Source: Ascidiella aspersa
Taxonomy: Eukaryota
DNA: 64,000 bases
Assembly: GCA_963924565.1 (NCBI GenBank)
Contig: OZ004613.1
Span: 22,506,001-22,570,000 of the forward strand
Direction of reading: 5' to 3'
In this document: piece after piece, positions 1-41,041 of the stretch
Position numbering within the stretch: the first letter of the stretch is position 1
How the letters are laid out: the number at the start of each line of letters is the position of its first letter
Notes under the pieces: generated by a model
Seen by the model: only the letters and a program-made list of their open reading frames with translations
Told to the model about the DNA's origin: nothing
The model's database searches: none
Made by a program: the position numbers and the translations under genes

Positions 1-3000
1 ATACCTTGAAGAAGTCAAAACCGAACTGAGGGGTGAGTGTGTCATTTTTTCTTTGAACGTTTTTACTTTATTTTGTGAAATTTATTGTCGTTTTGTGGAT
101 AACTTGTTTAGCATCACACCTTTGAACTATAAAAGGCATTTCTACTCAATTATATAGTTTAACATTGATTTATGTGATTTAAAACCATTGCTGAAATATT
201 TGTGAAACTTTGCGAGTATGATCAAGAATGGCAGCATAAGGAGCACATGGACTTAAAATTAGCACAATTAATTCAAGGTTATACTGAACGTATTTTAGTA
301 AGTTTGGTAATCCACTTGCTGTGCCACCAAACGTCACATGTTGCCTATTTAATATTACCTTTTGAAACAACCACTTAAGATGTTGAAACACTTCAGAAAG
401 TAAAAGGATCTTTCGCGGACAATAAAATGTAAAAGAAAGATTCTTGTCTTCGTATCCAAAGATCTTAAGACTGTTTATTTATTAAAACAGATAAAACATA
501 AAATCATTTCTTAAAATCTTACAGAAATATATATATTACGCCTATAAGGCATCATCAGTTTCTGTACAAAAAACAAACATGTAAAAATGCCAATATGGGT
601 CTAGTTGTTGCTTTTGCATCTGACATCTGCAGGTGTTTTATGATTTTAGACCTATACGCTATCCTACTCTTTTTAATTTTATATATTTTACTTTTTAACG
701 ACCCATATTGGCATTTTTACATGTTTGTTTTTTGTACAGAAACTGATGATGCCTTATAGGCGTAATATATATATTTCTGTAAGATTTTAAGAAATTATTT
801 TATGTTTTATCTGTTTTAATAAATAAACAGTCTTAAGATCACTTGAGATGTTCTAAGCACATTTTCGTATTGATTAGCAAACAAAGGTTACGCTTACAAC
901 CCATTTAAAATGAGAAAAACATATAGGCATTGCAAAGCAAAATTCACGAATTAATCAATTGCGAGTAGCGGTATATTAACTCCATTTTTACGGAACATGT
1001 TTGCAGTATCCTGCAAGTTTGCTGCTTCCTATGTTATCGACCTTGAATTCACGATTGTCTGCGAGCACGGTTGCACTCGGGCGCCCCCTGAGGATTGGAT
1101 GGACAGGTCAAACCAGGGTCTCTACTCGGCCACAACTCCAATATGCCTTATAAGTGAGCATTTCGAGCCAACTGTATAGCAATTAACGAAAAGTTACTAG
1201 TTTTGAACACCATTATTTTAAAGGTATTTACCAAATGGGAAGCAAGACTTTTTCAGTTCATTGTTAACGGAAGCATTATGCGACAATTTGGTCTATTTGC
1301 TGGATTTTGAGGGGTTGCTGTGTTTTTTCTGTTTAATAATTTTGGTTTTCAATGTTAGTATGCAAGTCTCTAAGTGCGCACGATTTATTTGACACTCTGT
1401 TCAACATCACATATAGACTAACGTCACCAACAACCATATGCAAATCCATATCGAGGTTTCTCAGTATAATTTTATTAAGAAGTTTAAGAAGATTTTATCT
1501 ACTGATTTTCGTTTTGCAATAAGTTACTGAAGGCTGCTATTAGATTTTACCAGTCTGCCTCGCTAAACTATAAGCATTGTAGAAACAGTTGTTTGTTTCA
1601 CCAAAACAAAATATTATGTTTAGGCCACCAATGGGCTGGAAAGCAGATTTCTATAAGAAGAACCTCGGGTGGCATCAAATACACTGGCGAATTCGAGAAA
1701 TACGTCACCAGCGAGAGTGGCCTAGTGCGTAACCCAAGTCAGGGACACTACCTAATTCAAGGTTGGTGTAACTAGTTTCTATGTACATATTAGCTATCTT
1801 GAACCTTATAAACTGACTCACACGTGAATGATTTGTTAAAAAAGAAAAAAAACAAAGACCCATTTATAGGCTAAATAGTTGGATTTATTTACTAAGGCTG
1901 GTACAATAAAATTTAAATGAATTTTCGCAAATATCTTTATCAATTTACTAGTAGGCTACAGCCAGTCGTTTTAAACAATCTTTGTCATTTAAAAAACTAC
2001 AATTTTCTTTTAACTTATTTTTGCAGACAAGAGCTTCCCGGAAGAAAAGGTGCTTTCAGGTAAATTTTTATTCATTTTGCAAACTTGAAGTCGACGCGAG
2101 CCGTTTTTAAAACAACCTTTTGGTTTCAGTCGGGTGCGAAACAACGGTTGCGTTCGTCAACAGCGACGTGTACACGGCAATCTGTCCTCCGGGATGCAGC
2201 GGAAACACGCTTTGGGGAACTGGAGTTTACTCCGACGACTCCAGTCTGTGCCTGGCTGCCGTCCACGACGGTAGAATCGATTGTGAGTTACAATTAGGCG
2301 CTTCAGTTCTTTCGTTTTACTTTCGGTTTTGAAAATTAGCACTCTTATGTTGTATTGAATGGAGTAACTGTTGTGAAATAAAATAACTTAATTGCAAGAA
2401 TTTTGGGGTTGAAACGACACGACAAGGTTCTTCGAACAAATGATTGGGTTTGGATTTAAGTTATTGCGACGGAAGTTTAACTGAAATGTTTTTATAACAA
2501 TTAAAATGCTTTTCATCACAGCTGAAATGTTTTTCATAACAGCAAAATGGATTATTTAGCTGAGATTTGTATGTAAAACAGTAGGCCTACGCTTGCTATA
2601 TGTTTTCGTTTATGTTCTTCTCTTTATATTCGACACCATTTATTTTTAATGATTTAGATCAGGGGTGAGCAACTTTTTCTAGTCGTGGGCCAAAACCAAT
2701 CTAAAAAAGGTCTCCGCGGGCCGTAATATGTCAACTTTGTAGACTTTACGCATCTTATTATCACTGCAACGACAGTTAATTAGGGATAAAGCTAGGGTAT
2801 TTTACAATTTACACTAGATGGAGGAACAAGATTAACGCAAAGCGCAAAAAATATTTGCTTTTTCGTAGTTAAAATAGCTAAAAAATATGAAGAATGACCT
2901 CGTGCCCAGTTGTAAAATAGGTCGCGGGCCGGATCTGGCCCGCGGGCCGTAAGTTGCCCACCCCCCCTGATTTAGATTGTCGTCAGTGGTTTAATTATAC

Positions 3001-4347
3001 TTAAACGGGATTTCAGTCATTTTTTTATATGCGATAATAATGGCAAGATCTACATTGAATTGTTGACCTTACTTTATGGAAACAATATTGTAGGAGAAAT
3101 GTCCTTTTTTGTGTAAAATACTTTATTAGGAGCTTGCAAAAATGTTACCGACTGTATTGCAAAATAATGTAGGCTATTGTGTACGTGTTCCACAGGGAGA
3201 CGTGGTGGAGCGGTAGCCCTACGAAAAACTCCAGGCCTCGATGCCTACATCGGAACGGAAGAGAATGGAATTACAAGCCAGTCTAAAGATCATCCCTGGA
3301 TGACATCTTTTGTTTTTCAGAGTAAGATTTCTCAACATAGGCCTAATAAAGCTAGAATTTAGAATATAGCCTGCCACGTGCAACGGGTAGCGATGTTGAC
3401 AAAGATCTATAAGTTAGCTTTGTACGGTCCAACAATAAGAACTACAGAATTACCATTGTAGGCCTAATTTATCAGACCACAGTGATCATTGTACGCTTTC
3501 TTCTAAACCTGTTTGCAACTACATTTTCTTGTTATTTCAGATGTATTGCAACACCGAACCTCCACGTTCACAAGTAAGTATGACAGTTTGATCTAAGTCA
3601 AATGATTGCCAATGTATTTCGCACTACGATTGCTCTTAATACGTTTTAGTGGACTAAAATGCTCCAAATAACAAGTTGTTTAAACCCGGTTAGAAAACAT
3701 GGTTTTGTATGTTCCTTTCAGTCTCGTGCAAAACGATGGCAGTCTCGATTGAAAGCGAAGAGTTTGGGGTGATCTGTCCGAGTGGCTGCGAAAACAACTA
3801 CGAGGTTTGGGGCACGGAAAACTACTTTGAATTCTCGTTGATCTGTACGGCCGCTATACACAACGGAACTATAACAGGTAAGAGCTCAAGTTGCAGCAGT
3901 GGTTTCAATCGTTGGTGCCTGTAATGTTTCTATAAGATTTTTTAATCTTGTCGGTTTAAGCAAAAAATAACAGGCCACACTTAATGATGGAATAAGCCAA
4001 ATCGAACGAATTCCGATCTGTGTATGTATGGAGATTTTTTCACATTGAACCCGGAAAAATTAATTTAATAAAAATGCTAGCAAATTATTAACTAAACTAC
4101 AAAGTTTGTTTATTCTCAAACTGGTGGAAAAAATGGGGTGATATAAGCGACTCGTACAGCGCAAAACACAAGTTGGTCTGCAACATGTTACCACGCTACT
4201 TTTTAATCGTTTTCAGCACAAGGAGGTTTGGTGAAAGTTCTCAAAACCGACCCGCAACGTATGTACCGGGCAAGCCTGCGCAACGGCATCCACAGCATGC
4301 CGATTCGGGGTCAGCAGGGACAACGCTCCTTTGTCGTCTTTGCGTAA
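1..4347 (+). CDS. LCCL-domain repeat protein, 3' part (>=3 tandem LCCL domains; 5' end outside window)
   Basis: Exons <1-32, 1007-1153, 1624-1761, 2027-2059, 2130-2282, 3196-3321, 3541-3573, 3722-3877, 4217-4347(TAA). All introns GT-AG and phase 1. LCCL motifs: CPPGC...WGTGVYSDDSSLCLAAVHDG...GG...YIGTEENGITS and CPSGC...VWGTENYFEFSLICTAAIHNG...GG...YRASLRNGIHS...SFVV. Confidence 0.85.
414..840. mobile_element. Inverted-repeat element with 141-bp arms (461-601 / 700-840) carrying a minimal hammerhead motif; probable Penelope-like retroelement remnant
   Basis: Arms are reverse complements with one mismatch. A related copy lies at ~31537-31796. Confidence 0.7.
735..781 (+). ncRNA. Minimal type I hammerhead ribozyme motif (core GAAA mutated to GUAA); mirror copy at 520-566 (-)
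   Basis: TACAGAAA-CTGATGA-T-GCCT tat AGGC-GTAA-T ATAT A-TA-TTTCTGTA: stem I, core, stem II, 2-bp stem III with palindromic loop. Confidence 0.6.
1007..1153 (+). CDS. LCCL protein exon (degenerate LCCL N-half)
   Basis: ttgcag|...|gtgagc; VSCKF...VCEHGC...GLYSATTPICLI. Confidence 0.75.
   Translation, partial: YPASLLLPMLSTLNSRLSASTVALGRPLRIGWTGQTRVSTRPQLQYAL
1624..1761 (+). CDS. LCCL protein exon (degenerate LCCL C-half)
   Basis: tttag|...|gttggt; HQWAGKQISIRRTSGGIKYTGEFEKYVTS... Confidence 0.7.
2130..2282 (+). CDS. LCCL protein exon (LCCL N-half)
   Basis: tttcag|...|gtgagt; CPPGCSGNTLWGTGVYSDDSSLCLAAVHDGRI. Confidence 0.9.
2660..2969. mobile_element. hAT (Charlie-like) MITE
   Basis: TIRs CAGGGGTGAGCAACT / AGTTGCCCACCCCCCCTG; exact 8-bp TSD ATTTAGAT; GGCCCGCGGGCC subterminal motif. 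Confidence 0.9.
3196..3321 (+). CDS. LCCL protein exon (LCCL C-half)
   Basis: cacag|...|gtaaga; GGAVALRKTPGLDAYIGTEENGITSQS...SFVF. Confidence 0.88.
3722..3877 (+). CDS. LCCL protein exon (LCCL N-half)
   Basis: tttcag|...|gtaaga; CPSGCENNYEVWGTENYFEFSLICTAAIHNGTI. Confidence 0.9.
4217..4347 (+). CDS. LCCL protein terminal exon (LCCL C-half, stop)
   Basis: ttttcag|CA CAA GGA GGT...; QGGLVKVLKTDPQRMYRASLRNGIHSM...SFVVFA*. Confidence 0.85.
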
Positions 4348-8400: not shown

Positions 8401-11400
8401 GCCGACTCCACGGAGCAAATAGTTGCCTTACACACATAGTATTATAAAACGTGAAAGCAAATTAAATCAATCCGTTGTGTTGCAAGTGTGGCGGTGGTGG
8501 TGGCAGGTCTGAGGGAGATCGAACCGGTTGAGACCGGTTTTCCAGGCGGGTCGACTCCGAACCGGAACTAGAAAGAGTTGGACTGTCCCGGGACGACCCA
8601 CTGTCCGCCCTTTGACCTCTGTTGTTGTTGTCTAGTGATGACGTGGTCGATTGGGCCTCGTCGATTCCGCTGTCCACGCCCGATGTCGTCACACCCGGAA
8701 GCGATTTGAGCGTGTGCGAGTTTGGGCTTGATGTGATTGACTGTATGTAAAACACATAGTTTTATCATTTATTATTGTCGATACAAACCCATTATTTATT
8801 TAAAAAACTGTATCACGCTATAGAAGTGATTTTATTAGAATACCTTTAAGGCCTCAAATTGTTACAAAATTATAAATGGGTTCGACCAACCTTACGATAA
8901 AGTAATGATTTATCGTGGAAAACTTTGTTTACATAAAAAGCCTAATCACGTATTTTTTTTTTAAGATTTTTAGGTCGCTATAGTATTTCATAGAATTCTG
9001 AACTCAATCTTTAGACTGTTTAATAAAAGCAAAAAACACGTTTTTCAAGATATGTTTTTATAGTTTCCTTACATACGAAGGCGTTTAAACTTGTTTGTTT
9101 AATTTGATCAAAATATAGCGTTTAACGATCGTTAGTATAAATTATGTAAGCGTGGTTTTCCAAAGTTATTAGTTCGGGTTAGTTTTGCAAATCTTAAGGG
9201 ACGGTGAGCTTAAATTTTTTTCAAAAAGTGTCCCCTACTGAAAAAGGTTGGAAACCACTGCTCTAAGGAGACGGATTGTGTGGTAGCAGAAATAGGCTAC
9301 TTACGCTGGCTGGTTCTTTTCCGGCTTCATTTGCGACTCTGATGTCGTCGAGAGAAACGTCGTGGTACATTTGAGGAACAGACACTGGTTGGCGCTCGCG
9401 GTACTTTCGTCTCGGAACCCATTTGCCTGAAGGAAAATTATTACGTATTTATGGAATGTTTTGCGTTTAAATGGCATGCAGCACGATTTTAAAACAAGCG
9501 GCATTATATAAAAGGTATGCACGCAAAAAAAAACAGGAAGAATTATATGTTTTATGCAAACCCTACTTGTCATCTACGGCATGGAAACGTCAGTTCAAAA
9601 ACATCGAGAATTTTTTCGTTTTCAAAATAATGCTATTAGAGTACAAGCTAGGGTAGCATTATTTTCAAATGATAAAATTAGATAGTGAATGCGATGATGC
9701 TAATATATGTAATGACGCAATGTGCATTGCGGGTAGAAGTGAGTCTCTAGGAAATATGGAAAAGCTAGTCGCCACGACTTTCTTATCTTTGCAACAATGT
9801 CAGTTTGACCTTACGTCAAACGAATTTATTATGTCACAAGAAAAGTGTTTTGCTAATGTGTATAAATCAAATGTTTTACTTTTTTACAAAACGTCGCTCG
9901 ACTATTCCGAAAAAAAAACAAGTTGTGCGATTTCGCGAAGGCCTCGTAAAGATCCAAACTTAAAAGTTTGACCAGACATCGAATAGAGCAGCTAGAACCC
10001 TATCACTGATTAACAAGAATCTCACCTGTTTTTCTTCGTCGCTCGGAACAGCAGAACACCATCGTCAAAATAACCGCCAAAAGAATAAGAGCTGCGACCA
10101 CGGCGAGCGCAATAATGAGGGTGAGGCTGATTACAGCAATGCGGGGTTCCCGTGGGGCCGGGCCGGGGTCGGTCACGTTGCCCCAGTGGGTGCTGTTACC
10201 GGTGAGGTTGACGTTGGAAGTGGTGAAGGGGAAGGGCGTGCTTCCTGTGCAGCAACGAACAGAAGGTTAGAAGGCGTTCGACAAAATTGTATGACTGATA
10301 TGATATTGGTTGAACCCTTGGTGTGGGTTGTATAGGCTTAAGCTATATAGGCTTATTAATGTTAAAGTATTACATTTTGTGCAGCTCTTTAGGTAAAATT
10401 TATTGAAAAATGTTGTATGCAGGAATGGCGAAAAAATGTGTACCTTTGTTATTAAATGAGGAATACACGATTCAAAATTCAACTTACCAAGTTTTTCGGT
10501 TGCGTTTTTGATAGTTTGCGTCGTAACAGAAACCGCTGCCGCCGTTGTCAGACCCGGGGAAGTTTTAGTCGACGGGTCACTTGTGACGACATCACTAGTG
10601 ACGACATCACTGGTGACGTATTCAACGGACGTTGTAGCGACGTCATAGGTGCTTTGTGGCACGGTTGAGGTAGTTGCACCGGCGCTCGAAGTTTCAGAAT
10701 CAAAAGATGTCGAGGTGGCGGCGGACTGTGACGTAGCGGGATACGACGTGATGGGTTGTGACGTGATGGGTTGTGACGTAATGGGTTGTGACGTAATGGG
10801 TTGTGACGTGATGGGTTGTGACGGGACGGGTTGTGACGTCACCATCTCTGACGTAGTCGTCGTTTGAGGTTGCGAGGTTTCGGTTTGAGTGGTTTCGCCA
10901 ACCAGCGGGACGGTGATAGTGGAAGTGTATTGTAGAAGGGTGGACAAGGTTGAAATCACCCTTGTGGTGAACTCGCCAAGCGTGGTTTCACTTGGCGTGC
11001 TTTCCACGGTCGTGGGCGACGTTTCCGGGGCAACAGAGGTGGTCGGGAGGCAGGGGGGACACACCTCGGTCTCGGTCTCCCTTCCCGGATCGCCGTTGGG
11101 ATGCTCGTAATCCTCCACGTGTCGACAACTGGCAGGAAAGACTTCCGAGCCGAACTTGTTGACGCACGTGCGCACTCTGCAATGCAAAAGTATAGTCGGA
11201 TGGTCATCTTTTAGTTTTTTTGTTCTTTATGCTTTTAACAGATGTGTGCAATCATACCGATAAGCAACCTATCGATAAAAACTTTGTCTGCCTGAGAACG
11301 TAAGAGTAAATTTGACTAAACTTCAGTTTTTGTAACACGGAACCTTAGTTTCAACTTGGGTTTCCCATTTCGGCATTGCATTTAAAAGCATATACTTTGG

Positions 11401-14400
11401 TGGCAACGATTAAATTCGGTGAACTGTCTCCAAATCTTGGTTTAGCAAATTAAAGTTAGTTACGTCCGGTTGTTAACCAAACTCTTTTTTTATTTACCTT
11501 TCAGGTAGAATGCACTAAACCATTTAAAGGTAAAACGTTAAGCGATGAAACAGTTCTGTTTGTTTCGCTTAACCCCAAATTTAGGTTTGATTTTGCGGAA
11601 ATTAACAAGACACAGACAAAAGTAGTTCTTTACCACCATATATTAAAGGAAGGCCAGTTTCATGCAAGTTACAAGAGCTAGGAAATATTGAGATTAGGCA
11701 AGACCAAAACTGAAAATAAACGCTTTCCGGGCGTCTTTGTGTTACAAAATGACTTTTAGTTTATTTTCAACAGCCCTTAATCTTTTTAATATCGACATAC
11801 GGGCACGCTAAACAAAAATAGAAACACGCATTTGCATACCAGCACTTAACGATAATTGCCCTACCAAGGGCGCCCCAAATAGAGTACACGATAATGCAAT
11901 TGCGTTGTAATGGCACGTGTAAGACTCCGGCCCGTGCGAAAGTTTTCCATAATTAGACGTGTTCGAGTCAGCGACGCGTTAATCCGGCAAAAACGCGCCT
12001 GTTACTTTTCATGGATGAAGCACACAAACGTGAGATGAGGGCGTTGTTTCAGCAATTGCCCCCAAACGAAGCAATGGCGTCGACGCAAAATGCATAGGTG
12101 TCTGCGAACCGGGGACTGCGCCGTTTTTTTTTTTTAAAGAAAAACGACCATTAGCCATATCGGGCCAGCGCTAATCTTGTCTCTTATTTAACCGAGTGAA
12201 TGTTGTTACATCAAGTGAAGAATGTTATTCCCAAAGCAATATATTTATGCCTTGTCATTCATTTTTATCGTACTTACAACAGCCTGCTTAAAACCCCAAA
12301 ATTATTGTCCATAAACAGTAATAAAACCAAGTATAACAAGCTTAGGCTCTATGTAGCGCAAGGGGTCAGTGATGGCTCAAACATGCTGCTGATGGAACAT
12401 TCGGTAAGGAAATCTCCGGCCGATGGTATCAATGGACATCATAGGCCTCCTTCCAAATGGCAACATGCCACTTGGGGTTGCCTAGCTATCAGCTATAAGC
12501 ACTTTTTAATTAAACAATCGAGATGACAGTTGGGTAAAAATCTTACCTGGTCCTGGTGCAGACATATGGCGGGTAGCAGGTGCTCCACCCGGCCCACTCC
12601 ATCCAACGATAGCAGTTCTGTTCGTCGAGCGAGTTATTGCAGTCGCGGATGCCGTCGCACACGCGAAAGTTGCCGATGCACTGCGCCGTGGTGGTGTTGG
12701 CGCCGGCGTGGGCCAGCAGTACTTCAGGGGCGACGTCGGTGCGCTGGTAGACCGAGCAGCGGAACTGCATGAGGCAGTAGCGACAGTTGGACTCGTCAGA
12801 GCCGTCCAGGCACTGTTTGGTGCCGTCGCATACCTGAAAGGACAAATCGAGCGGATGGAATAGGTTAGTGGTGCGCGTTTGCGTATAAGGCTAAGCCAAG
12901 GGTCACCAAAATACGGCCGGTGAACCAAGTCCGGCCCGCGCATAATAATGAAGATAAGTGCAAAATCCCCTCGAGCCGTGGAAGATAAATATCGACCTCA
13001 ATTCCTGATCACTATGATCAGTAGCAGCAGAATAGTCTAGAAAAGCTAGTAATTCGGGTCAGACGCTATATTTATAGGCGATAAAAGATATATATATATA
13101 TATTTTGCTGGCAAAGGCATCGTCAGTACCATTTGAATAAGATATATTGATGATGCCTTGTGCCTGCCAAAAATATTTATTTATTTTAAAATTTACAAAT
13201 ATTGTCAGACTTGAATTACTAGCTTTGCGAGACTATTCTGCTGAAGATAAATAAAACACAGTTGAAATGTTGCAGGATGAGATTTCGAACTAAATATGGG
13301 TGAAATTATGAACTGAACGACACTTTCAAAAAAATCTGACTTCGGTTTTCGGAGTTATTTATATTTCTTTCGTTTAACAATGACTAAGTTAATTTGACAC
13401 TGACTTTATATCGGGGCCGTCATTGCAGGGAATTACATTTATAGGGCCCTTTATGAAAAAAGTTTGGTGACCAATTTACACATTGCACAAGAGTTATTAT
13501 TGTTTTTACTTTATTTTAAGTTGATACATAGACGCACATCTTGAACTATACCAAAACCACATACTTTAGGCCATAACAGATTATGCCCAGACGGTTTAAT
13601 TAACGTCTACCGCTAAAATTAACATAACTAATAAACTAAATCCACAGGACGGAGTCCTTAAACCGGTTGACATTTGTTTGTACTCGATAAAGGTTAAACA
13701 CAAGCCTTAGATCAGGGATGTCCAACTCAAACATGCCGGCGTGCTGATTTTTATCCTATAACTTCATCCCGTGCCAAAGTTTAGTAATATAATTCTTTCT
13801 AATAATAAAAGCGTTTTTTTACAAACAATAAAAACATGTAGTTAGCAGTGCGCATTACTGCATCTAAATGTCCGTCGGTGAGCTGACTTTTGCTTTTTGT
13901 TTCTTCACACCAAACTTTATAGTTATGTGAATGCTATAGCCTCCACTACAATATAATGTTATAGTATTAGAAGTAATTGTTAATTGTCGTGATGGCAGCG
14001 AATGTTTTGTCGTGATGGCAGCGAAATGTTATTGTGAATAAACAATGAAAATTTACTGTATAAAAAAATAGGTATTTTTTTTACAATTGGCTGAATAGCA
14101 AATTAACTAATTTAGGGGGGCTTGCGTGCCATTTTTTATTTGGTCGCGTGCCACGTGCCGCTTGTTGGACACCCCTGCCTAAGATGATAAAATGATCACG
14201 AGTTATAGGCACGTAAAGGCGAAATTGGGGTAACGACCAGAACAGTATTTTTGTCTGCAAGTTGGAATTCATTGTTAATTTTTTGCATAACAACTCTTTG
14301 AACATGTATTTATTTTGTACGAGTTGTTTTATCGTTTGTTGCGTGTTGTTTTCGCATTGTGTTAACTATTGCGTTGTGAATCACTTAACTTTTCGTGCCC

Positions 14401-26400: not shown

Positions 26401-29400
26401 CTTGTGAAGAAATTCGAATTGAATTCGGTGTTAAACTTAGCGGCGATATCACCACGCGGAATCTTGTTTCGAACAGTTCGAGGTGGGTGTAAGCCGTATG
26501 ATTTCAAGTTTGACAACGCGTGGCGAAAACAATGTAAATTTCTGCAAACGACGTGGTAATGTTGCACATCAATGACGACATATCATATACAGGAGCGAAC
26601 ATTTGAAAACAACGGGGAAGAATGTATTGGCTTTCATATTTTAGTATGGGCTTTGATCTTCTTATTACGTTTTACTACAACCTTCAACCATTAGGCTCCG
26701 AAGGGAAAGGATATTTTAAAAAGCGTGTTTTCATGACGTTGAAAGAAACGCTAGCGGTTAACTTTCACATAATCTAAATAATGTCTAATTCCCTTATGAT
26801 ATTTCCAATACATTTCGATTTTAACTTCAACTATATAAGAAACCAACGGGAGTTTATCAAACCACTTTAAGGACAACAAGAAGAAAAATAATAAATACTA
26901 ATAAGTTCGGCTGCACGATTGACTGTACTATGATACAATATGTGAGTATTTATTTAAGGTCGGCGTATTTGACATAATATCAGCTACTTGTATTAATCCA
27001 ATAGATCCGGTTGCATATAGGTGAATAAAAATGCATGCCAACATACTGGACATTGCTATAGCCACGTAAATAGCCCCAGGTCAAAAAATCAAAAAAACCT
27101 TACTTATTGTGATACATTTGTTTTCGGTACATGCTGAAAGAGCAAAACAACGAGCAAAACCGTTATGAGTTAAAACTATTCAATGAAATATTTTTCAGTT
27201 CGTATAAAATGGAAAATTAGTTAACTTTTATGAATAAAAAATACTCACACACAGGCTTTTGAGTTTGGGACCTTGACTGCCTTTTTATAGACCCGTGTGC
27301 TTAACAGACGCAAAAAACTTGATAATTTGGGTTTGTCGTTACGTCATCGACACTAAATGTCTGCCTAACACAAAAACTTATCCCCACTAATGGTTTTAAA
27401 CGTATTTCGTAAAATTTACGTCCATAATTTTATATGTTGACATCCATAGTTTGAAAGTTAAACACTTTAAAAACCGGGAATTTTGAGAAAGGCCTCTATT
27501 AAGTGACACGATAGAAACACGATAATAGTATTGTCGAAATTAAAAATACCAAAGTATTTATTAGGGGTTAATTACGGTAACAACTTTTTTCGACATTGGT
27601 TAAAACAAGGGTTATCGTGGCAATATCAACACGATTAATGTAGTTTTACAGAAGCGCGAGTAGTTCCTTTGCTTTAAATGTTTTTTTCATTTAGATCGAA
27701 TTTAGTTGGGTTCTATCGAAAGAGATGGTGACCAGCAGGCTTGCAAACATAGATATACATAAATCATGCGTCAAACTAATTATATTTTTATACCAGTTTG
27801 TGAACAATTTATACAAAGTGGATAACAAGCAAAGAATACGACAAAGGTCTATTAATTAATCGATCAAAGCGTAATTGTATTAATGTCAAATCGTATCGCC
27901 TTGTATTGAGGCCATAGGAAGGTCACTCTTGTATTCTAAGTGTTTTATGGCATGATTAGAGCAACTAAAATGCCACCTTCGCCCTATACGCGTCGTTACT
28001 GACCAGGCAATGTTAATTCATCCGTTTAGTATATCAAGCATATAAAAAACAAATTTGCGCAAATGATCAGGCTGTATATGGCCGACCATAACGTGCTGTA
28101 ATACAGAAAACACAATTGCTCATTTTTTTTGCTAAAGATTCGCGTTTCAGTATGGCAATTACGCTCTCTTTTTTGCAAAACAGACCGACAAACAAACAAG
28201 ATGTTCAAAAAAACACTTTTTTGTTTAATTTCAGTGGGGAACCCCTAGAATTATTAGGTTGCGTCTAAAAACCCCACAAACCAAATAGTGCATTTAGTCT
28301 TCACACAATTATATCAATTACTTATCTAAAGTTCAAAAAAACGTGCTAAAAAGCCATTTTTCGTACAAAACAGCCTAACAAATGTTGTTAAAACGGGACA
28401 TTTGTACCATGACTACTCACTTTTTTACTGTAAAACAGGTTTATTCATAGCTATTCAATTGCAAAGCAATGCAAAAAAGTAGAAAAAAATTTTTTTCAGG
28501 GGGAGAATAATTTATTTTTTTCAAAAATTTTAGCCTAAATCTGAATTTTCAAATTGACGTAGCACGGTCAATACTGAACCAAACGTGCTTAGATTTGTTT
28601 TGTCAGATTTTTAGACGAAACCTAACAATTCCAGGGGATCCCCACTGAAATTTTACAAAAAAGTGTTTTTTTTAACAACCCTATTGTATAACCATGATTT
28701 ATCATATCGGCAGAACGAACAGGCAGCCATGCATACAATACGCTGGGCAAAGTCGTGACGAGTACCTGATTGAATAATTTAAAACTCAATTTGCAAAACC
28801 CTGTAATTTATTTTTTATTTCGCAAATAGCGGAAAGTTATTATTCGAATAGTCGTTTCATTTTCACAGGTAAACACATATTTTAAAGGTAAAAATTTGCC
28901 TTAGTTCAAATTGGTTTTAAAATCAACAGTTGATCAACTGGCAGAAGATTTTCCACTTTATAAAGATTTTTCCTAAATGAAAGACTGCATGTCATCGTTG
29001 TATTACAAAACATAAAGTCGATACCTTGTTGTTGCGTTAGTTTAAATATGGTTTTAAAATCAACACTTGATCAACCGGAAGAAGATTTTCCATTTTATAG
29101 AGATTTTTCCTAAATGAAAGATTTTCAAAATATAAAGTCGATACCTTGTTGTAAAAGGGCCTTGATCCTGGCAGGAGTTCCCACCGCAAGATGCGTCACG
29201 TTTTTTCGGAGTGCCTTGGCTTGCTCTTCTATCTTCATGTGTCGCGAGAAGAGCTTTAAGGACCTGGATTGCCGACAAAACGATTGAATTGAGAAGTTCA
29301 AGTCGACTTGAAAAAGGGTCAAGGAGAATTCGGCCACACTTGTGACGAACTTCGAGACGACAGTACAATGGTACTCTGAACGCAGGTGATTTAACGGCAT

Positions 29401-32400
29401 AATAGACTATAGTTTAGTCGAGTATTGAACTTGGTTAAGTTGGATTTTCACCAACGGGAACCGAATTATTTAGAATTCCCTGTCAAACCATCAGTAGACC
29501 CGAAAACTCGTTCAAAATTTGAGTAATTTGTTTTGAAAATTGTTTACATGTTAATTAAATATACGCCATTTACTCGATCGATGTTTTTTTTATAACATGT
29601 ACCGCTTTAAATTTTTTTTATTCATAAAATAAAACTAAGTAATACGCTTAGGTGACAGAAAAGCAGAAGGGCGCTAACTTAGTTGTTTAGTCAAAAGCAA
29701 TGTTTCTAAACCTTTTCTATCGCGTGGACCCTTTAGACATTATTCAAATTCAATTTCCACAAGAAAAAAACAGCACCTGTAAATTAGAGAATGTATAATC
29801 GCTTTAAAATTGCAAGTCTTTCAGCCTATATATCAGTACCAACTTATTAGTAATGACTTTGGTCAAGGATATTTAGATAAAAACAGCGTTATGTATTCGT
29901 ACAGTGAATAAAGGGAAAACAGAGAGCGCATCCTTTGACCCCAAATAAAACGAGCTTTTTTGGTCAAATTCCAAATCCCCCCTTGGGACTTCCAAATTAC
30001 GCCCTACGGCTAATCACCCAAGGTTTAGAATCTCTGGTCCAAATATAAGTGTTGCAATGTGCAGGATGCCGAACTGCACACCGGAATGTGGAATGGCATT
30101 ACCAAACTGTTTACTTTAAAATAAAACTAAAACTCCCGCATCAAGTGAATCAACATTCCAACTAAATTCGGAATGTGTTAAAACAATTTTGTTTTTTAAT
30201 AATTTACAATTAGGACTGAACAAAGCAAATAACCAATACTAGGAACGTGTTGAGTTATTAGATTTCAAACACTTGCAATTTTTAAAGGCAATTCAACTCC
30301 TACCTGCATTCTTTGCCTTTAAACGCTTGTGTATCTGTGTTTAGGTTTGAGGCTCGCAAGGCATTTCCACAAACTATGAGGACCAACGGCGACATCTTGT
30401 GAGTGTGATTCAAAGAAAATTTCCGCCACTTGGGTAGAACTGATAAGCAAAAGAGTTTACGCGGTGTGAGTATGTGCTTGGGAAAACAAGTCGACAAGGT
30501 AAATCCAACGCACCAAATCAGCTTGCAATATATGTAAGGACGTTTAACAATAAATGTTAGGCTTCTTCTATTACAGTGGAGGCAGATGACAAACTTTAAA
30601 ATTTAATTAAAAAAACTAGTTAAAAATATTTGTTAATAACGTAACCATCCAAGTATTATGGAAATACTCTTGGTTAGTTCATAAAAATTATGGACGCACA
30701 AAAAAACTTTTTGTATTCCAGTGTCACTTAAGCAAGAGTTGTTAGCAAGTAAATTATAACCAACCATCAAAACATATAAAATTCAAAAAGCTACAAACCT
30801 TGTTTTAAATAGGATACTATTGTGTGTCCTTTGTCGACGTTGCAAGTATAAAAATGTACATCTGTAGCAAGATATAAAAAACGAATTAATTCACAATTTT
30901 TAAGCTTTTTTTAATATAATGTACTTGTTCACCCTTTCAAACAAAAAAACAATGGACACGAATCAAAGTAAAACGTAATCTGTAAATCAAAACGTATTCC
31001 CAAAGAACCGCAAGACAGGAAGGTTACGAATTAAGTTAAACGAACCTTTTAATGCGAGGTCTTCTTCTTCTATGGCAGATAACGCTTTGTAATGTCGGTT
31101 AATTGCGGAACGAAGCGTGTCCGGGTCTCCGCCTTTTTGCGAAACGACCTCATCCGTAATTCTCTATAATGAGGAACAGGACCACATCACGATTTTCGCT
31201 TACAAAAACAACGCTTTAAAACATTGTCATGCGGAGGGCAACATTAACCAAATGTTTAGAACAGGGATATATCTGAGAGTTTACTGCTTCATTTTGCAAT
31301 TATGTCCGACCCGTGGCTCACTGTGACCTACAAAGGTTACCCTGGTGTTGTTACAACTATACAGTACATAAGCTATTGTTACCAGGCATATTATTAATCA
31401 AACAAGTACCAGAGGAGCTGTTTTTTAATTGAATATACAGTAGATTGTGTGGTGAATAACCAACCAACAATTACAAGGTCCCCCACAACTACATGCTACG
31501 ATCTAAGCTGAAACACTTTCGGAACTAAGGTATCTACCGCAGACCATAAAATGTAAAAGAAAGATTTTGGCTTTCGTATCAGATGATCTTATGACTGTTT
31601 ATGAAAACAGGTATAAAACATAAATTCATTTCTTAAAATATTTTTTTTTTTTTTATATTTTATTACAAATATTGCAATTTTACACATGTTTGCTTTTTGA
31701 ACAGAAACTGATGATGCCTATTTATAAGGCGAAATTTATATTTTTGTAAAATTTTAAGAAACGATTTTGTTTTATACCAGTTTTCATCAACAGTCTTTAT
31801 TTTCATCAACAGCCAAGATTATTACTACAAACAATGTATAACCCAAGACGTAAAACGACTGTGTACCACTGGTATACAGCGTGCCCACCAACCGACGGTT
31901 TAAGCAACCTTGATCATCGTACCGAGCAACTTACCAAAAAGGCAAGTTCCATTCGCTATACGAGTTCAAGTAGAGAGGCGACGTGCAATCAAATCAACCA
32001 AGAGGCCCCCGGTTACAAATTAAGGGACGCACTCCACGTCATTTGGACAAATAATCGGCGAGCAGCGCGCGCTACCGCCAGGCATTGCAGGAGCATCGCG
32101 TAAACAAAACGGGTCCGGGACTAGCGCTAACGTACAATGCACGCAGCAGCCTACGACGACAACAAACTGCAAGCGCTGTAGCCAGTGTCAGCAGCATAGA
32201 GTAGAGCATAGGCGGGCAGGAAACAGCCAGTTTCCTTTAAAAAGCCTCAAAAGCGATCGCGCTTTGGGCTCCCGTAGAGGTTATTTATAATTGAGTCGAC
32301 ACAGCGCGTTACGTTTCAGGCGCGTTACGGAAGATCGTGCGGTGACGGCGTTCGATGGACAGAGGCGCTTCATTGTGAGGCTCGTAAACGCCTACAAAGC

Positions 32401-35400
32401 TTTGCCATTTAGTTGCAGAAATGAGGACAGCTGCGTTTAACGAGCGTTGAAAAATCGTTTTGGGAGATACAACTCCTTTAACAGAAATTACGCTGAAAAG
32501 TACTACAGTGACTTTGAAATTGACTTGCTGCAGCTGGGAGGTAGCGCGTATGACTTTATTACGCGTGGGTGGCAGTTCTTCTAGTAGACCAGACTTGCTG
32601 TATCTGGAGGCTTTATTTATTAGCAGTCAGATTTAACTAGTTTCACATTATATTTGGGGTTTTATTTATTTGTCCTATATAGCCTTGGTTTTGTCGGCAA
32701 ATATACCGAACATGAAGCTTTTCCATATAGTTTCAGAAATTTAGACGAATGCGTTTGCGAAGCGCTGAACAATATTATTTTTTTGAAACATGTCATATCA
32801 TTACGGTAAACCGAAGTACGCCAGCAACCTGCGAGTTGTAATAGCTGCGAGGTAGCTATTTGACTAGTAGGTGGAACCTCTAGTTGCACAGGCGTGCAGC
32901 ATGTGGCTATATTTAATAGCTGTGATGTTGTCGACTATATTTTGACTCTTTGCTTTTAGTTCTTTTCAGCAAGAACAACCAATGTCGTTTTACAGGCTAA
33001 AAACCAGGTATTAAGGTTGACTGATTGTTCGTCTTATAGCGGTCGGTGGTTTGTACACTGAAAAACGATTTTGGCCAGCTAAAAGGACTACAGTATTACT
33101 GCTGCTCTTAACTCGTTTGTGTGCCAACGACGAAAAGGAATCCAACTTATGTTCACACGTTAAACGTATACACACGCAGTTCCTATATGGCAACAAAAGG
33201 AAAAAAGCTAGTTATAGGGTTTCATGAATTAAAACAGTGTTTCTCAACCTATGGGTCGCGGCCCGAAATTGGTTCGCCCTTTGATTTGGTTGGCTCGCCG
33301 ACTACAGTAGTTCACATGGTTAGATTTATTGCGATTAGAGTTTCGCCCGATATTTCTCAAAAATTTAAGAAAACTCTAGAACAGATGCGAAGACATCTTT
33401 CATCATTACTAGATTTCGAATTTTATTTATTTTCTCTTAGGCCTTGTTCCCTTTTTCAGTAATGAAATTGGGTCGCCAAAGCTTTGCTGTTGTACTTGGG
33501 ACGCCACGAAAAAAGGTTGAGAAATACTGGGTTAAGTAAATCGGCCTAAAACAGCTCAGTAGCAACGATACATCCCGGCGGTAAAATCCATGTACATTGT
33601 ACAGGATTGACATTCAGAAGACCGCACTTTTACTGTGCGTTACCGTAAGGACGTTCGACCGTTTTGTCGCACAGAACACGTAAACACGACTCTTATCAGC
33701 AAACAGTGCGCGCTGTACAAGGTGCCTTATCTGGAGGTCTGTACTGAACACAGTGCGATTGGCGGTAACGCACAGAATAGGTCAGGCAAATTCACCTATA
33801 CGCTCGAGATATAACCTAGCTGTCACAACAAGACAGTTCGCTTTGCGAATTAAGGTCGAGTGGGTGTTGTGCTGGACAAAGGGCAAATATATATTATAGG
33901 TTAAACGATAGGGCAGTGTTATCGCCTGAGTTTTGTTGTCTTTTCGGCCCAAATCCGAACGGGGTTTGTTACAGTTGCTACATTCAGTCAAAAATTGTCA
34001 CTGGCTGTCACGCTCGCTTAAGTTAAACCGTTGCGATCAATAAATCACGGAAGAATAGAATCGCCTTAATATACGCGGGGATTTATGTCGAATTTTTTTT
34101 GCATTTCTTGGCACAATAATGGGTTTTAGTTTCCTTTACTAAAAAACACTAAGCCATAGCTACTATTACAAACTTTTTGTTGACCTATGAAGAAATGTAA
34201 CAAAATAAATTAAGTCTCAATCGGTTGTTAAATTGAATAAAGTTGGTTTAAATTACACATGACAAAATTAAGACATTTAAAGAGCAACGTATGTTTTTAA
34301 AAATAAAGCATTTGGGACAGGATAATATGTTGCATATAATGTTTAGCGCATGCAAGTTGTGCGTGCACTATTAGTATTTAAAAGTGTTATGTATTTCTTG
34401 TGTTATCGAAAATACCGCTACGAAGTTTCGGCAGTAAGATGTTCGTCCACAAAAAAATGTTAAAACTGAAAAATATTTCCAACAAACGTTATAAGCTGTA
34501 GCTAACGTTGCAAACAGTGCCACATTGGTTAAACAAAAAAACTAAAGAACCTAATATTTTTTCAATAGAACGTTGTTATCTGATGTTAAAGATCCCGCAT
34601 CTTGTTCTACACTGAGAAATGGACACTTTTTTAGTAAAAATCTAATTAGAATGGGAGTTATTTAAACAGCAAACTTAATAACAGTCAATCGAATCAGGCC
34701 GTTTTGTAGAGAAATGCACATGAGTAAACTTCTCCTATTGTTTGTATTATTGTTAGTAACGAAAATACGGGTAGAATTATGGTAAAATTATTTCGTTATG
34801 AGGCGGAAGTTTATACACCCATATATCTAGGTGATTTGAGTGATTGCGAAAGTGCACGTGTGTAATGATTAACTGGTACCACCTCACTTACGGGAAGCGT
34901 CATGTTACAAACGGCTAGGGGTAGTTGAAATAGCATACTAATGAAGTAATAAAAAGCTTCCTACAATAAAAATCTTTAACCAGAAGCCTTACACGCACCG
35001 ATATGACAAAATATACGTTAACCTGGAACAGGCCGTGCGTTTTTATTGCCATATAAATTGTGTCAGTTGTAAGATACTTTTCTTACAGCTGTTCCTGTAG
35101 TTAGGACAGAACTGTTTAGAGCGGTCACGGCTATTTTGTATACACTGTCGAAGTGTTTTTGGGGGTACTTACACAAGTCATCATTTTACAATTTTTCGGG
35201 CTGTTAAAGCGAAATTTAATGTTAACAATGTAGTATTATGTTTGTGAAGCATTTGGGGAGTTATTTATTTGTTGGTCTTAGTAACGTTGGCATCAGCAGC
35301 TTATTTCTGTCGACATTTTCTAAATTTTAGTAAACAAAACTGTCAGAAGGAAATTTAGATTAGATTAGGATATATAGTAGTGGTGAGTTGATTTGCTACA

Positions 35401-36900
35401 CATATGGATAAGGAAAAATAAACCAAATACGGCGAACGCAAAACAAAACCTCATCCTCATCATGACCGGCACAACGAGGGACCCTAAATACCTTTCAAGT
35501 TAGCTGTGTTAGCGAAGGTTAAAGTCCGGTTTACCATTCATGCTTTTTTACGATTTCTGCTTATTTCTCGGTTGTGTGCTTAGTTTGCCTTTATTGTATT
35601 GCTGTGGATGATTTTGAACAACTAAGCAAACTCGCAAAGAACTTGTCAAGAGGAATAAGTAAAAGTTTGCATTGAATATTTACGGGAGGTGAACTGCTAT
35701 GTCTTAGATATTACCGTGCTTGTTGTACGGTCTTCGGAGATGGTAACCCTGGATATTGTGGAACAGCAAGTTAGCGTTCTGTGTTGCAAATGGATCAAAG
35801 TAACTGATCCGCTGCCAAGTGCAAATCAATTTCATTTTATTAAGTGCATTTGATTACCTTTGCAAACGATTTTTAGCGTGCGCTATATCAGTGTTTGTCC
35901 CCAGTCCACGAAATGCACTAAATTATGGAAGCATACACCCTGTTGTGCTGCAAAAATAACTATTAACCGTTATGAAGAACTACTTAGTACCTCACAATAA
36001 CGATTATCAAGAGAAATAATTGGGTAGGATGTCACAAATAAAATATCTCACAAGCTATCAAGGCTACGCTTAAATACATGTTGTGCGATGTATTTTACAC
36101 TCCAGCCTGGTATTAAACCTGTTTTTATTAATTATGATACCTGATCATAGGCTAATTGTCCTGCGGTATCTTATAAACCCCAGTACACTCCATCAATGTG
36201 CACCCTTTAACAATTCTGGTAGATCCTGGGGTATACAATACACCAGTGTTGTAATGACTTGTCATTAAGTCAACTTAAGTCACTGATTTCAAATGACTTG
36301 ACTTGACTTGACTTGACTTGACGTAAGGACAACTGACTTGTCTTAGACTTAAGAATTTTTTTTAAATAACATCAGATTAATTTAAAGGTACTTAATTGAA
36401 ATGTATCTCAAGTTTTGCACATTTAACACTTTTATTACTGTATATTACGTTTGTGTTATTTATTAGTTAAATTGGTGCTTATAATCGGACAAGTATACCA
36501 ATTTTATTAGTTTAAAAGTTGACTTTTATGTCCATGACATGATTTGAAATTGACTTGCTCTCATAATGACATGACATGACTGGGACTTGACTTGGGCAAC
36601 GGATGAGTTGGACTGGGACTTGGGTAATATATGCAAAAAGACTTGACTTGGACCTAAGTTATTTTTCAAATGACTGGACTGGGACTTAAATGACTTGTTT
36701 ACAACACTGCAATACACCCGGTTGAAAACCACTGCGCTATATCATCCTCGAATTCAGAAAATAAAACACTGAGCAGCGTCTTACCTTTCGTCGACGTTTC
36801 TTTTTGGGTGGAACTATAGGTTCACCGCTACCGGTAAGAGGTTCGGAAGCACTGCGTTTAGTCGCTTGTTCCGTTTGGTCCTGCTGGTCTTCCTTTGCAT
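5360..36900 (-). CDS. CMSS1: CMSS1 (Cms1 ribosomal small subunit homolog), coding exons 2-8; first exon uncertain
   Basis: Exons 36785-36900, 31046-31163, 30799-30861, 30304-30439, 29145-29263, 7134-7222, 5360-5443 join in frame (~241 aa). Motifs match recalled CMSS1: [81 protein letters not shown]. Confidence 0.92.
5673..5726. repeat. 18-bp tandem repeat x3 (CCAAGTGTAGAATGAGGA)
   Basis: Directly visible. Confidence 0.9.
6287..6840. repeat. Foldback (long imperfect palindrome) in the last CMSS1 intron
   Basis: ttctaagcaaaaatgtctaagacaattagtgcatccaa vs ttggatgccctaattgtcgtagacctttttgcttagaa; inner aaataatgtgc/gcacattattt. Confidence 0.75.
7134..7222 (-). CDS. CMSS1: CMSS1 exon 7
   Basis: cgttag|AA ATG...GAG|gtaatt; [30 protein letters not shown]; phase-1 entry matches exon 6. 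Confidence 0.92.
8462..8740 (-). CDS. LDLa/TSP1 membrane protein terminal exon
   Basis: atacag|SITSSPN...DSGIDE...[15 protein letters not shown]. Confidence 0.8.
   Translation of the reverse strand, partial: SITSSPNSHTLKSLPGVTTSGVDSGIDEAQSTTSSLDNNNRGQRADSGSSRDSPTLSSSGSESTRLENRSQPVRSPSDLPPPPPHLQHNGLI
8462..18501 (-). CDS. Type I membrane protein: signal peptide, LDL-receptor class A repeats, TSP1-like module, Ser/Thr mucin stalk, TM, cytoplasmic tail (~714 aa); nested in CMSS1 intron
   Basis: Exons 18199-18501, 17054-17176, 15986-16108, 12547-12833, 10488-11176, 10026-10244, 9305-9426, 8462-8740 join in frame with GT-AG. Four CDGxxxCxxxxDExxC motifs; [10 protein letters not shown]...RTRVRTC; hydrophobic [31 protein letters not shown] followed by RRRK. 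Confidence 0.88.
9305..9426 (-). CDS. LDLa/TSP1 membrane protein exon 7 (cytoplasmic)
   Basis: ccttcag|GC AAA TGG...|gtaagt; [28 protein letters not shown]... Confidence 0.8.
10026..10244 (-). CDS. LDLa/TSP1 membrane protein exon 6 (transmembrane helix)
   Basis: gcacag|...|gtgaga; long hydrophobic run, then CCSERRRKT. Confidence 0.9.
10488..11176 (-). CDS. LDLa/TSP1 membrane protein exon 5 (end of TSP1-like module, mucin stalk)
   Basis: VRTC...ETEVCPPC then a Ser/Thr-rich tract with TSQPI repeats; |gtaagt. Confidence 0.9.
12547..12833 (-). CDS. LDLa/TSP1 membrane protein exon 4
   Basis: [17 protein letters not shown]...[29 protein letters not shown]. Confidence 0.92.
12897..13452. mobile_element. 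Decayed hAT MITE of the 4443 family, interrupted by a foldback insertion
   Basis: caagggtcaccaaa...ggcccgcg at left, aaaaaagtttggtgacc at right; shared internal tttcgtttaac.atga.taag. Confidence 0.65.
13025..13243. mobile_element. Foldback element with degenerate hammerhead-like cores in both arms, inserted in a hAT MITE
   Basis: cagcagaatagtct...agctagtaattc / gaattactagct...agactattctgctg; CTGACGATGCC on - (13116-13126), TTGATGATGCC on + (13147-13157). Confidence 0.55.
13713..14177. mobile_element. hAT MITE
   Basis: TIRs CAGGGATGTCCAAC / GTTGGACACCCCTG; near-TSD CCTTAGAT/CCTAAGAT. Confidence 0.85.
15986..16108 (-). CDS. LDLa/TSP1 membrane protein exon 3
   Basis: [17 protein letters not shown]...FRC...CIPKSQ|gtaagc. 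Confidence 0.9.
17054..17176 (-). CDS. LDLa/TSP1 membrane protein exon 2
   Basis: [16 protein letters not shown]...FSC...CISQQK|gtaagc. Confidence 0.9.
18199..18501 (-). CDS. LDLa/TSP1 membrane protein exon 1 (signal peptide, Cys-rich)
   Basis: aaa[26 protein letters not shown]...CAAGIK|gtaaac. Confidence 0.8.
22731..22937. repeat. Dispersed foldback family; other copies ~21846-22030, 26628-26702, 44880-45035, 49072-49230
   Basis: Shared core aaaatgatacctactt...atgggctttgatattctta.tacgtcttactacaacctccaaccattatgctcc in both orientations. Confidence 0.7.
24832..25110 (-). pseudogene. Decayed duplicate of the CMSS1 exon 5 5' end plus upstream intron
   Basis: ccacttgggtagaactgat is identical to 30426-30444; similarity continues ~230 bp into the intron; translates [13 protein letters not shown] vs [13 protein letters not shown]. 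Confidence 0.8.
28203..28677. mobile_element. MITE with ~70-bp terminal inverted repeats
   Basis: aaaaaaacacttttttgt..aatttcagtgggga.cccct.gaatt.ttaggtt.cgtctaaaa and its reverse complement at the right end. Confidence 0.8.
28912..29152. repeat. Tandem duplication containing the CMSS1 exon 6 donor site
   Basis: tggttttaaaatcaaca...agatttttcctaaatgaaaga...ataaagtcgataccttgttgt occurs twice; the donors are 120 bp apart. Confidence 0.85.
29145..29263 (-). CDS. CMSS1: CMSS1 exon 6
   Basis: [39 protein letters not shown]; ends phase 1. Confidence 0.93.
30304..30439 (-). CDS. CMSS1: CMSS1 exon 5
   Basis: [46 protein letters not shown]. Confidence 0.92.
30799..30861 (-). CDS. CMSS1: CMSS1 exon 4
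   Basis: [21 protein letters not shown]; phase 1-1. Confidence 0.88.
31046..31163 (-). CDS. CMSS1: CMSS1 exon 3
   Basis: [39 protein letters not shown]. Confidence 0.88.
31537..31796. mobile_element. Diverged copy of the 414-840 hammerhead-bearing inverted-repeat element
   Basis: Shares ataaaatgtaaaagaaagatt...cttcgtatc...gatctta.gactgtttat and the hammerhead arm. Confidence 0.7.
31701..31747 (+). ncRNA. Minimal type I hammerhead ribozyme motif with intact CUGAUGA/GAAA core
   Basis: ACAGAAA-CTGATGA-T-GCCT atttata AGGC-GAAA-TTT-ATA-TTTTTGT. Confidence 0.6.
33235..33529. mobile_element. hAT-type MITE
   Basis: TIRs CAGTGTTTCTCAACCT / AGGTTGAGAAATACTG; internal GGGTCGC motifs; TSD decayed. 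Confidence 0.8.
35012..35344 (+). repeat. ~330-bp direct repeat, copy 1
   Basis: Near-identical to 39070-39403. Confidence 0.9.
36244..36709. mobile_element. hAT MITE with internal (GACTT)n arrays
   Basis: TIRs CAGTGTTGTAA / TTACAACACTG; exact TSD CAATACAC. Confidence 0.92.
36785..36900 (-). CDS. CMSS1: CMSS1 exon 2 (acidic/basic N-terminal region, NLS-like KKKRRRK)
   Basis: ttctag|AT GCA AAG...AAG|gtaaga; phase-1 entry. Confidence 0.8.
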
Positions 36901-39069: not shown

Positions 39070-39403
39070 TATACGTTAGCCTGTAACAGGCCGTGCGTTT
39101 TCATTGCCTATGAAATGTGTCAGTTGTAAGATACTTGTCTTACAGCTGTTCCTGTAGTTAGGACAGAACTGTTTTTATACACTGTGGAAGTGTCTTTGGG
39201 GGTACACACAACTGTTTATTTTACCTTTTTTTTTCTGATAAAATAGGCTGTTAAAGCGAAATTTAATGTTAACAATGTAGTATTATGTTTGTGAAGCATT
39301 GTGGGAGTTATTTATTTATTTGCCTTAGTTACGTTGGCATCAGCAGCTTATTTCTGTCGACATTTTCTAAATTTTAGTTATACAATAAAACGAACATACT
39401 GTC
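39070..39403 (+). repeat. ~330-bp direct repeat, copy 2
   Basis: Near-identical to 35012-35344. Confidence 0.9.
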
Positions 39404-40167: not shown

Positions 40168-40583
40168 CAGGGGCGTGCAACTGTTTATCGCAACGGGCTA
40201 TAATATATAGTTATGATGGTGCTGCGGGCCAGACAATCGAACAACATATACATTTTTTGAACAATTTTTTCATTAAAACAACGTGAAATAATAATAAATA
40301 TTTTAAACACTGCACCTACATAGTAAGATCACGACCATGTTACTGAATCATTACCAGCAGAACAAACAGTTTGACTACAATGCACACTATGACGCAATAA
40401 TGGATGTTTGGTCAGTGTGACGTAATACAAGTTGAAAAATGCCAATAACTCCGTTACAAATAACTTTTCCAACAGTGAAAAGTATTTAAAATTAATGGGC
40501 TACCTGACGAAGTATGTGCGGGCCACGTAAATAGGTACAGCGGGCCGTGCTGTGGCCCGCGGGCCGTATGTTGCACGCCTCTG
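40168..40583. mobile_element. hAT (Charlie-like) MITE
   Basis: TIRs CAGGGGCGTGCAAC / GTTGCACGCCTCTG; exact TSD CTTTAGGG; GGCCCGCGGGCC motif. Confidence 0.92.
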
Positions 40584-41031: not shown

Positions 41032-41041
41032 TTGTCCGCAT
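41032..41041 (-). CDS. CMSS1: Candidate short alternative first coding exon of CMSS1 (ATG CGG ACA A|GTAAGC)
   Basis: A-rich leader aaaaca-ATG, strong donor, phase 1 compatible with exon 2. Only 10 nt, so it could be chance. Confidence 0.4.

Follow-up and report, generated by a model that had tools for sequence, protein, structure and literature searches.

The window analysed here, a stretch of 64,000 nucleotides from Ascidiella aspersa, carries near its start a long inverted repeat with hammerhead motifs in both arms, and the question raised by this locus is what kind of element left it there, how its two arms were made and whether the ribozyme is needed for mobility. The original prediction, made from the letters alone, saw a young insertion of the kind made by Penelope-like and derived non-autonomous elements, in which one arm had been copied from the other. 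The explanation that, taken as a whole, best accounts for the results, and that we hold with considerable confidence, is a young Penelope-like element (PLE) inserted by dual priming, whose RNA would be trans-spliced by the host and whose GUAA hammerhead would be weak and dispensable. Papers are cited by PMC number, for the extracts of their text that were available.

The near-perfect 141-bp inverted repeat expected at 461-840 was recovered. Its arms (461-601 and 700-840) are 141 nt each, 99% complementary and 98 nt apart, with a sole mismatch at 505/796, and the hammerhead parts were all in place in both of them (735-781, mirrored on the minus strand at 566-520). The fold of 372-852 reaches -244.8 kcal/mol (z -31, with none of 100 shuffles equally good). 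The long hairpin foreseen in the LCCL pre-mRNA stands as a prediction from this fold, and both hammerhead motifs are predicted to be locked in a 140-bp hairpin. The insertion itself is about 457 bp (384-840) and exceeds the inverted repeat, as the tail (384-460) and 601-699 are also element sequence; the latter, apparently a spacer, is element DNA and not host DNA. The pairing of 601 with 700 is a coincidence, G700 being private to the window copy (the family has C in 38 of 45 arms). A target duplication of 13 nt with one mismatch surrounds the insertion (Table 1). The inverted ends had been called tail-to-tail; the layout is instead head-to-head, the usual PLE arrangement (PMC3846280). The young age was right, the median divergence from the family majority being 1.4% (74 arms). 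The window locus is, in short, a truncated non-coding insertion of a young PLE, ordinary and inert.

Table 1. Features of the insertion and of its surroundings, in window positions.
Feature	Position	Strand	Remark
Left target-site duplication CACTTAAGATGTT	372..384	+	terminal bases common with element end
77-nt PLE "tail", on minus-strand arm only	384..460	-	in near-full-length copy L036 runs on towards ORF start
5'-truncated pLTR arm, unspliced form	461..600	-	begins 39 nt upstream of acceptor
Left-arm minimal type I hammerhead fold, G12-U13-A14 core	520..566	-	motif match
Element sequence upstream of plus arm, 3' UTR / predicted outron region	601..699	+	family comparison
Tail-less pLTR arm, unspliced form	700..840	+	with 601-699 begins 139 nt upstream of acceptor
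Pyrimidine tract and ACAG, predicted 3' splice acceptor	723..739	+	in sister copies, 16-nt leader joined after 739
Plus-arm minimal type I hammerhead fold, G12-U13-A14 core	735..781	+	predicted cut after 773
Plus-arm motif, TACAGAAA	735..742	+	
Plus-arm motif, CTGATGA	743..749	+	
Plus-arm motif, extra T	750	+	
Plus-arm motif, GCCT/AGGC	751..761	+	
Plus-arm motif, GTAA	762..765	+	
Plus-arm motif, TATATATA	766..773	+	
Plus-arm motif, TTTCTGTA	774..781	+	
Right target-site duplication CACTTGAGATGTT	840..852	+	one mismatch vs left copy
Open frame with LCCL exon, host gene downstream of insertion	2111..2329	+	Pfam PF03815, E 7e-11
Older head-to-head relative, 76-82% identical, canonical GAAA core	31505..31797	.	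in CMS1-like gene intron

A search of the species' own 308-Mb genome returned at least 98 matches to the window repeat, drawn from the best 40 of 759 candidates. Upstream of 601, other copies continue, with variable 5' truncation, into an ORF, so the genome-wide search with the arm did find the linked Penelope RT/GIY-YIG frame that had been anticipated. This single frame encodes YIDD, a CGKCALC linker and then a C-terminal GIY-YIG domain; GIY-YIG passes the Pfam cut-off, and RVT_1 passes it in the full-length relative P0003 and falls below it in the truncated copy. The order pLTR, tail, ORF start (ATG at L036:457) is seen in L036, which alone among the copies found has both pLTR and ORF start; it carries frameshifts, a deletion and one more change in the core. 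The search for an intact copy of the family found none. The linked ORF supports the assignment to Penelope; the idea of a separate non-autonomous element fails, since the locus derives by truncation from a coding family. The features of EN+ PLEs are all present, namely RT and GIY-YIG in a single ORF, pLTRs with 5' truncation, a tail on one end and a short target-site duplication (TSD). The tandem hammerhead repeats of non-LTR retrozymes are not: the arms are dispersed, inverted or single, and ORF-linked.

Concerning the clade, the CX2CX2C linker (CGKCALC) is present in L031/L036 and in P0003. A CX2-5CxxC zinc-finger linker between RT and EN marks the Neptune and Nematis clades (PMC8557442), and the family linker fits this definition as read from the protein sequence. 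The best protein match of L031:7600-9342 is P0003, a Phallusia mammillata sequence of 930 aa, with 78% amino acid identity over the query of 581 aa; the next matches lie at 45-49%. Such a match could mean that the hosts are closely related or that the element passed horizontally between ascidians. Together with the Ciona-type leader described below, it points to a likely ascidian host. Among the other copies, L332:1446-1762 is a complex insertion that takes in about 100 nt past the end of the tail, with a brief tandem stutter, and reveals templates continuing into the ORF.

The closest known counterpart is the EN+ PLE Pen2a_Av (PMC3846280; PMC8557442), with which the family has in common 5' truncation, head-to-head inverted pLTRs, a tail on one end, a TSD of about 9-13 bp and a single ORF with RT and C-terminal GIY-YIG. 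The tail is 77 nt here and 30-40 nt in Pen2a_Av-type PLEs. Many sister arms of the window family carry a host spliced leader, unlike Pen2a_Av as the available extracts describe it.

Regarding the ribozyme, Rfam detected no hammerhead at E<=10 in window positions 1-3000. The minimal type I fold was therefore not confirmed by model search; it was borne out by motif and by covariation across families. Helix I has a mean of 4.56 bp, against 2.56 bp when the partners are shuffled (a mean reached by none of 2000 shuffles; 16 motif groups that are not independent, in the register picked for maximal pairing), and the helix III palindrome covaries among families (TATA/TGCA/CTAG). This covariation indicates that the fold is a true hammerhead derivative. 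The conserved core, C3 U4 G5 A6 N7 G8 A9 / G12 A13 A14 A15.1, is matched in the sister families and broken by U13 here, and by its letters the window motif reads as a hammerhead-derived fold with a core variant.

The GUAA core had been taken for a change in this copy. It is no private lesion: U13 is the family state, found in 53 of 54 copies retrieved with a pattern that leaves position 13 free (A in none) and in 33 of 34 picked by similarity. Genome-wide there are 658 GAAA motifs and 58 GTAA motifs, GAAA being kept in sister families that include the relative at 31505-31797 and subfamilies about 86% identical. Copies with U13 span 0 to 6.6% divergence, which means that the source lineage went on inserting with U13. 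The PLE type I hammerheads of PMC4209133, including that of D. virilis Penelope, likewise have an extra base between positions 9 and 10.1, G10.1-C11.1, a short palindromic helix III and an acceptor at the 5' end of helix I; the family-wide A13U sets the window family apart from them as described there. A literature search returned no natural A13U variants; variants at A13, or from tunicates, may be present in the supplementary alignments of PMC4209133 and PMC8557442.

Changes at A13 cost 10-100-fold in activity (PMC4075628) and hammerhead mutants insert unaffected in vitro (PMC11167929); by analogy, the GUAA ribozyme is probably weak and dispensable for mobility. It is unlikely, on the other hand, that selection keeps it as a natural variant with full activity, either aided by protein or acting as a dimer. 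The remainder of the fold is intact, the main variation in the core falls at position 7, which is free, proteins can assist PLE hammerheads (PMC11167929), and helix II and the palindrome vary by 0.7-1.6%, against 1.5-2.7% in the flanks; the family is, however, too young for such low variation to indicate selection, and A13 belongs to the conserved hammerhead core (PMC3088659, PMC4075628). No arm among 92 in the family starts at the predicted cut site, and neither do any of the truncated partners (0 of 12 in GAAA families, 0 of 8 in GTAA ones), a lack that is no test of ribozyme activity. Homodimer cofolds of the spliced forms gave alternative duplexes and no hammerhead, and were uninformative.

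Two features go beyond the original prediction, an acceptor inside helix I and sister copies joined to a spliced leader. The pyrimidine tract and ACAG end at 739, which places the predicted acceptor (738-739) within the hammerhead helix I, and the D. virilis Penelope intron ends at the same place, the 5' end of helix I (PMC4209133). Some copies of the sister families retain the acceptor and others carry a common 16-nt piece joined exactly after it. Typing of 77 arms by script gave 19 leader-joined (10 with a first leader type, 9 with a second), 52 unspliced and 6 other, with a partial leader visible by eye in four of these 6; none of the 77 is cis-spliced. As two of the 19 come from a sister subfamily, the count for the family itself is 17 of 75 arms, a fraction biased by the choice of the first loci for covering 601-840 and of later ones for GTAA. 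Leader heads occur on both tail and tail-less arms. The starts of 20 of 92 arms fall at -2 to 0 of the acceptor, and the others are scattered from -1070 to +145. Genome-wide, 204 sites join the first leader exactly to a hammerhead core (control 0), and in these DNA copies of the species' own genome the leader is joined precisely at the AG acceptor that unspliced copies retain.

The leaders have an apparent source in the same genome. A 15-mer of the first leader occurs 2789 times (control 1) and the leader is followed by GT 2301 times, most of the listed places lying in a 429-bp tandem array with GTAAG next. The second leader (16 nt) occurs 623 times, partly in a 584-bp tandem array, also with GTAAG next, and has the same sequence as the Ciona spliced leader (PMC7986045). 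The end of the leader in the junctions is the exact start of the GT donor of the array. From their sequence, these arrays are likely SL RNA genes; the Ciona Sm motif AGCTTTGG was not seen by eye in either array unit. The 429-bp units lie on C7 from about 14.77 Mb (L117) and the 584-bp units on C3 at about 5.24-5.29 Mb (L208), with different leaders. The Ciona intestinalis SL system (PMC7986045) has this identical 16-nt leader, highly repeated tandem genes and a GT donor. Besides the Ciona-type leader, the window genome has another, more abundant type, whereas Ciona is described with a single one, and carries hundreds of leaders retrotransposed on element copies, unlike the Ciona system in the available extracts.

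These data make it very likely that the host trans-splices a spliced leader onto the element RNA, and the leader-tagged copies are likely a DNA record of copying from a capped, trans-spliced message. The acceptor would be used in trans with the leader and not with a cis donor as in Penelope (PMC4209133). It is quite improbable that the leader-headed arms are instead template-switch chimeras, in which the enzyme, while copying unspliced element RNA, switched through the AG to SL RNA or to a host mRNA leader. Leader and acceptor do have this terminal AG in common, and snap-back and rearranged leader pieces at the junctions indicate that the enzyme does jump, but the junction falls at one exact predicted acceptor in several unrelated families and coincides with the start of the GT donor of the SL genes, while other 5' ends are scattered over 1.2 kb. 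RNA reads from one same-species raw-read run also leave room for such jumps: 109 reads on L036:100-2700, from mixed family members and both strands, gave no leader junction in the 6 of 12 loose ends shown, at low depth. One L036 loose end is an inverted leader from a transcribed genomic copy. At similarly low depth, 147 reads on window 28900-48800 gave no leader among the 6 of 9 loose ends shown.

Spliced leaders recorded in DNA through reverse transcription are found in the SL-bearing retrocopies of dinoflagellates, and retroelement RNA that uses host trans-splicing in the Tor env RNA of Oikopleura. Neither case concerns Penelope or has a link with a ribozyme helix or with inverted insertions made by dual priming. 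A literature search brought up no account of Penelope elements being trans-spliced to an SL, most subscription papers being outside its reach. Trans-splicing would also change helix I, which has 8 bp in the unspliced and 5 bp in the spliced form of the window family; in several GAAA families the last leader bases add one pair to it.

Leaders were also observed without hammerheads. Several repeat families start with a leader and have no hammerhead core (L077, L079, L088, L094, L100, L111, L188, L196-L198). In other dispersed leader-headed copies without a hammerhead (L107, L109, L110, L112-L115, L201-L203), an ATG and short coiled-coil-like frames follow. These are possibly the 5' ends of LINE or other trans-spliced retrocopies, and L107 holds no ORF of at least 100 aa.

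Furthermore, a metagenome scan gave at least 121 stretches in which the Ciona-type leader is joined to hammerheads of other families. Among the matches listed, they are about 80-85% alike to own-genome loci over about 70 nt, and because the likeness is only of this order their source is probably another ascidian. Direct TSDs of 9-16 nt flank 30 of the 82 stretches with distinct flanks (control 0). A G stands just 5' of the leader in 51 of these 82 (background 0.17) and in 14 of 37 in the own genome (background 0.14). Such an extra G agrees with copying of the cap, as for LINE-1 and retroviral RT. Snap-back leader copies at several junctions indicate that fold-back priming also occurs, and as they can also add a G, the extra-G count could be inflated. 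In this other genome, L209-L329 form an abundant, leader-headed and SINE-like hammerhead family of about 90-95 nt with direct TSDs, and one of its subgroups was re-amplified along with a fixed upstream flank.

The origin of the two arms can be approached from the 63 family loci examined, which comprise 32 head-to-head pairs (L179 and L180 among them being one duplicated locus) and 31 single or unparsed loci. One tail and one tail-less arm make up every one of the 32 pairs. A TSD-like match of 10-16 nt, lengths that may take in 1-2 element bases, flanks 31 of them, and matches of at least 10 nt were found in 44 of 2083 non-cognate control pairings. Of 31 pairs compared by script, 21 have a tail-less arm that extends further 5', 8 a tail arm that does so and 2 equal arms, a count in which two rearranged tail arms were mis-parsed and would shift to the tail-arm-longer class. 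At the window locus only one arm has the 77-nt tail and the tail-less arm reaches 100 nt further 5'. With starts at -39 and -139 from the acceptor and a one-sided tail, neither arm can have templated the other, and the copying of one arm from the other has to be abandoned. The same starts and one-sided tail agree with two priming events on both target strands.

We thus consider dual priming, at two sites within the RNA and on both target strands, a likely origin of the pairs. The element enzyme would cut both target strands about 13 bp apart, two separate cDNAs would be primed on the sense RNA at internal sites 77 nt apart, and the two would then be joined head to head. Poseidon_Ac provides a parallel in vitro (PMC11167929), with two internal starts bounding the tail, extension of both strands and a hammerhead dispensable for insertion. 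It belongs to a different clade and host, its ORF start lies inside the hammerhead and not after the tail as at L036:457, and the window family is known here from genomic evidence. Whether the two arms come from one RNA is less clear, and we lean only modestly towards it. Of nine informative pairs, seven are unspliced/unspliced (one doubtful), two leader/leader and none mixed; against a single RNA, two other arms start at -3 and -1 with no leader, and the window arms differ at the polymorphic site 796.

Very improbable, and slightly more so than template switching, is that the inverted arms arose by fold-back self-priming of a single cDNA or from an antisense template (PMC3846280), one arm copying the other. 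The near identity of the arms, the palindromic leader snap-backs and two pairs with equal leader starts (L169, L171) would be expected from it. However, the tail-less arm is longer 5' here and in about two thirds of the pairs, the tail cannot derive from the tail-less arm, and leader-joined arms require a sense, spliced template. At the window locus it is contradicted, and the arms there also differ at site 796, a polymorphism common in the family (11 of 87 arms). A MITE or DNA transposon, which the long, terminal-looking inverted repeat could evoke, has practically no chance of being correct and is ruled out by the variable 5' truncation, the one-end tail, the TSD of 10-16 nt and the contiguity of the arm with the RT and GIY-YIG ORF.

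Dual priming and trans-splicing can be joined in one reading, which we find somewhat more plausible than not: the helix I site would have been co-opted for trans-splicing, and capped sense RNA would be copied to the cap from two starts, on both strands, the ORF passing only through the unspliced precursor. In the best explanation, too, the host spliceosome would join the spliced leader to the acceptor within helix I. With the capped spliced RNA as template, the cDNA would reach the leader, often with an extra G, and leave dead-end arms of about 117 or 194 nt. With the unspliced precursor, as at the window locus, the arms would retain the acceptor and could carry the ORF. With copying started about 101 or 178 nt 3' of the acceptor, only short, promoter-less and SINE-like copies could come from spliced RNA; ORF-bearing copies need an unspliced downstream acceptor, so the splice site would be kept in the lineage without an antisense template.

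The family therefore bears on three questions about PLEs, which are the strand and splice form of the RNA that is copied, the retention of splice sites and the need for the hammerhead. An antisense template was proposed and favoured for PLE copying in PMC3846280, whereas the leader copies of the window family require a sense, spliced one. The significance of splice-site and intron retention in PLEs was called unknown (PMC8557442), and selection on expression is another proposed reason for intron retention (PMC2377424). The host leader is a natural tag for sense, spliced and capped RNA copied to its 5' end, with hundreds of junctions in two genomes. If the joint reading is true, the question of sense versus antisense would be settled and splice-site retention explained. 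As the leader extends helix I in several families, splicing would retune the ribozyme fold, and the spread of one family with a core-mutant ribozyme would be natural evidence against the need for full cleavage in vivo.

Regarding the host gene, LCCL exons lie also upstream of the insertion (profile matches in L034), and the expected position between LCCL exons agrees with domain matches on both sides, on the plus strand. The insertion would be intronic by these matches, rather than by RNA reads. On the plus strand, the gene holds five or more segments with LCCL domains (window 1-4000 and L034). The older relative at 31505-31797 sits inside a 5.6-kb intron (31164-36784) of the CMS1-like gene confirmed by RNA reads, and four introns of this gene were confirmed with the reads mapped on window 28900-48800. 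Elsewhere in the window, the minus strand at 10270-12997 shows an LDL-receptor class A exon and a long mucin-like open frame with a 15-bp tandem repeat (10712-10861), and a CortBP2-domain exon lies at 49016-49666. Further inverted-repeat pairs are found at 58496-58642/61608-61754, 57488-57593/62756-62861, 28202-28286/28593-28677 and 6299-6341/6783-6825, and these are probably DNA transposon or MITE ends.
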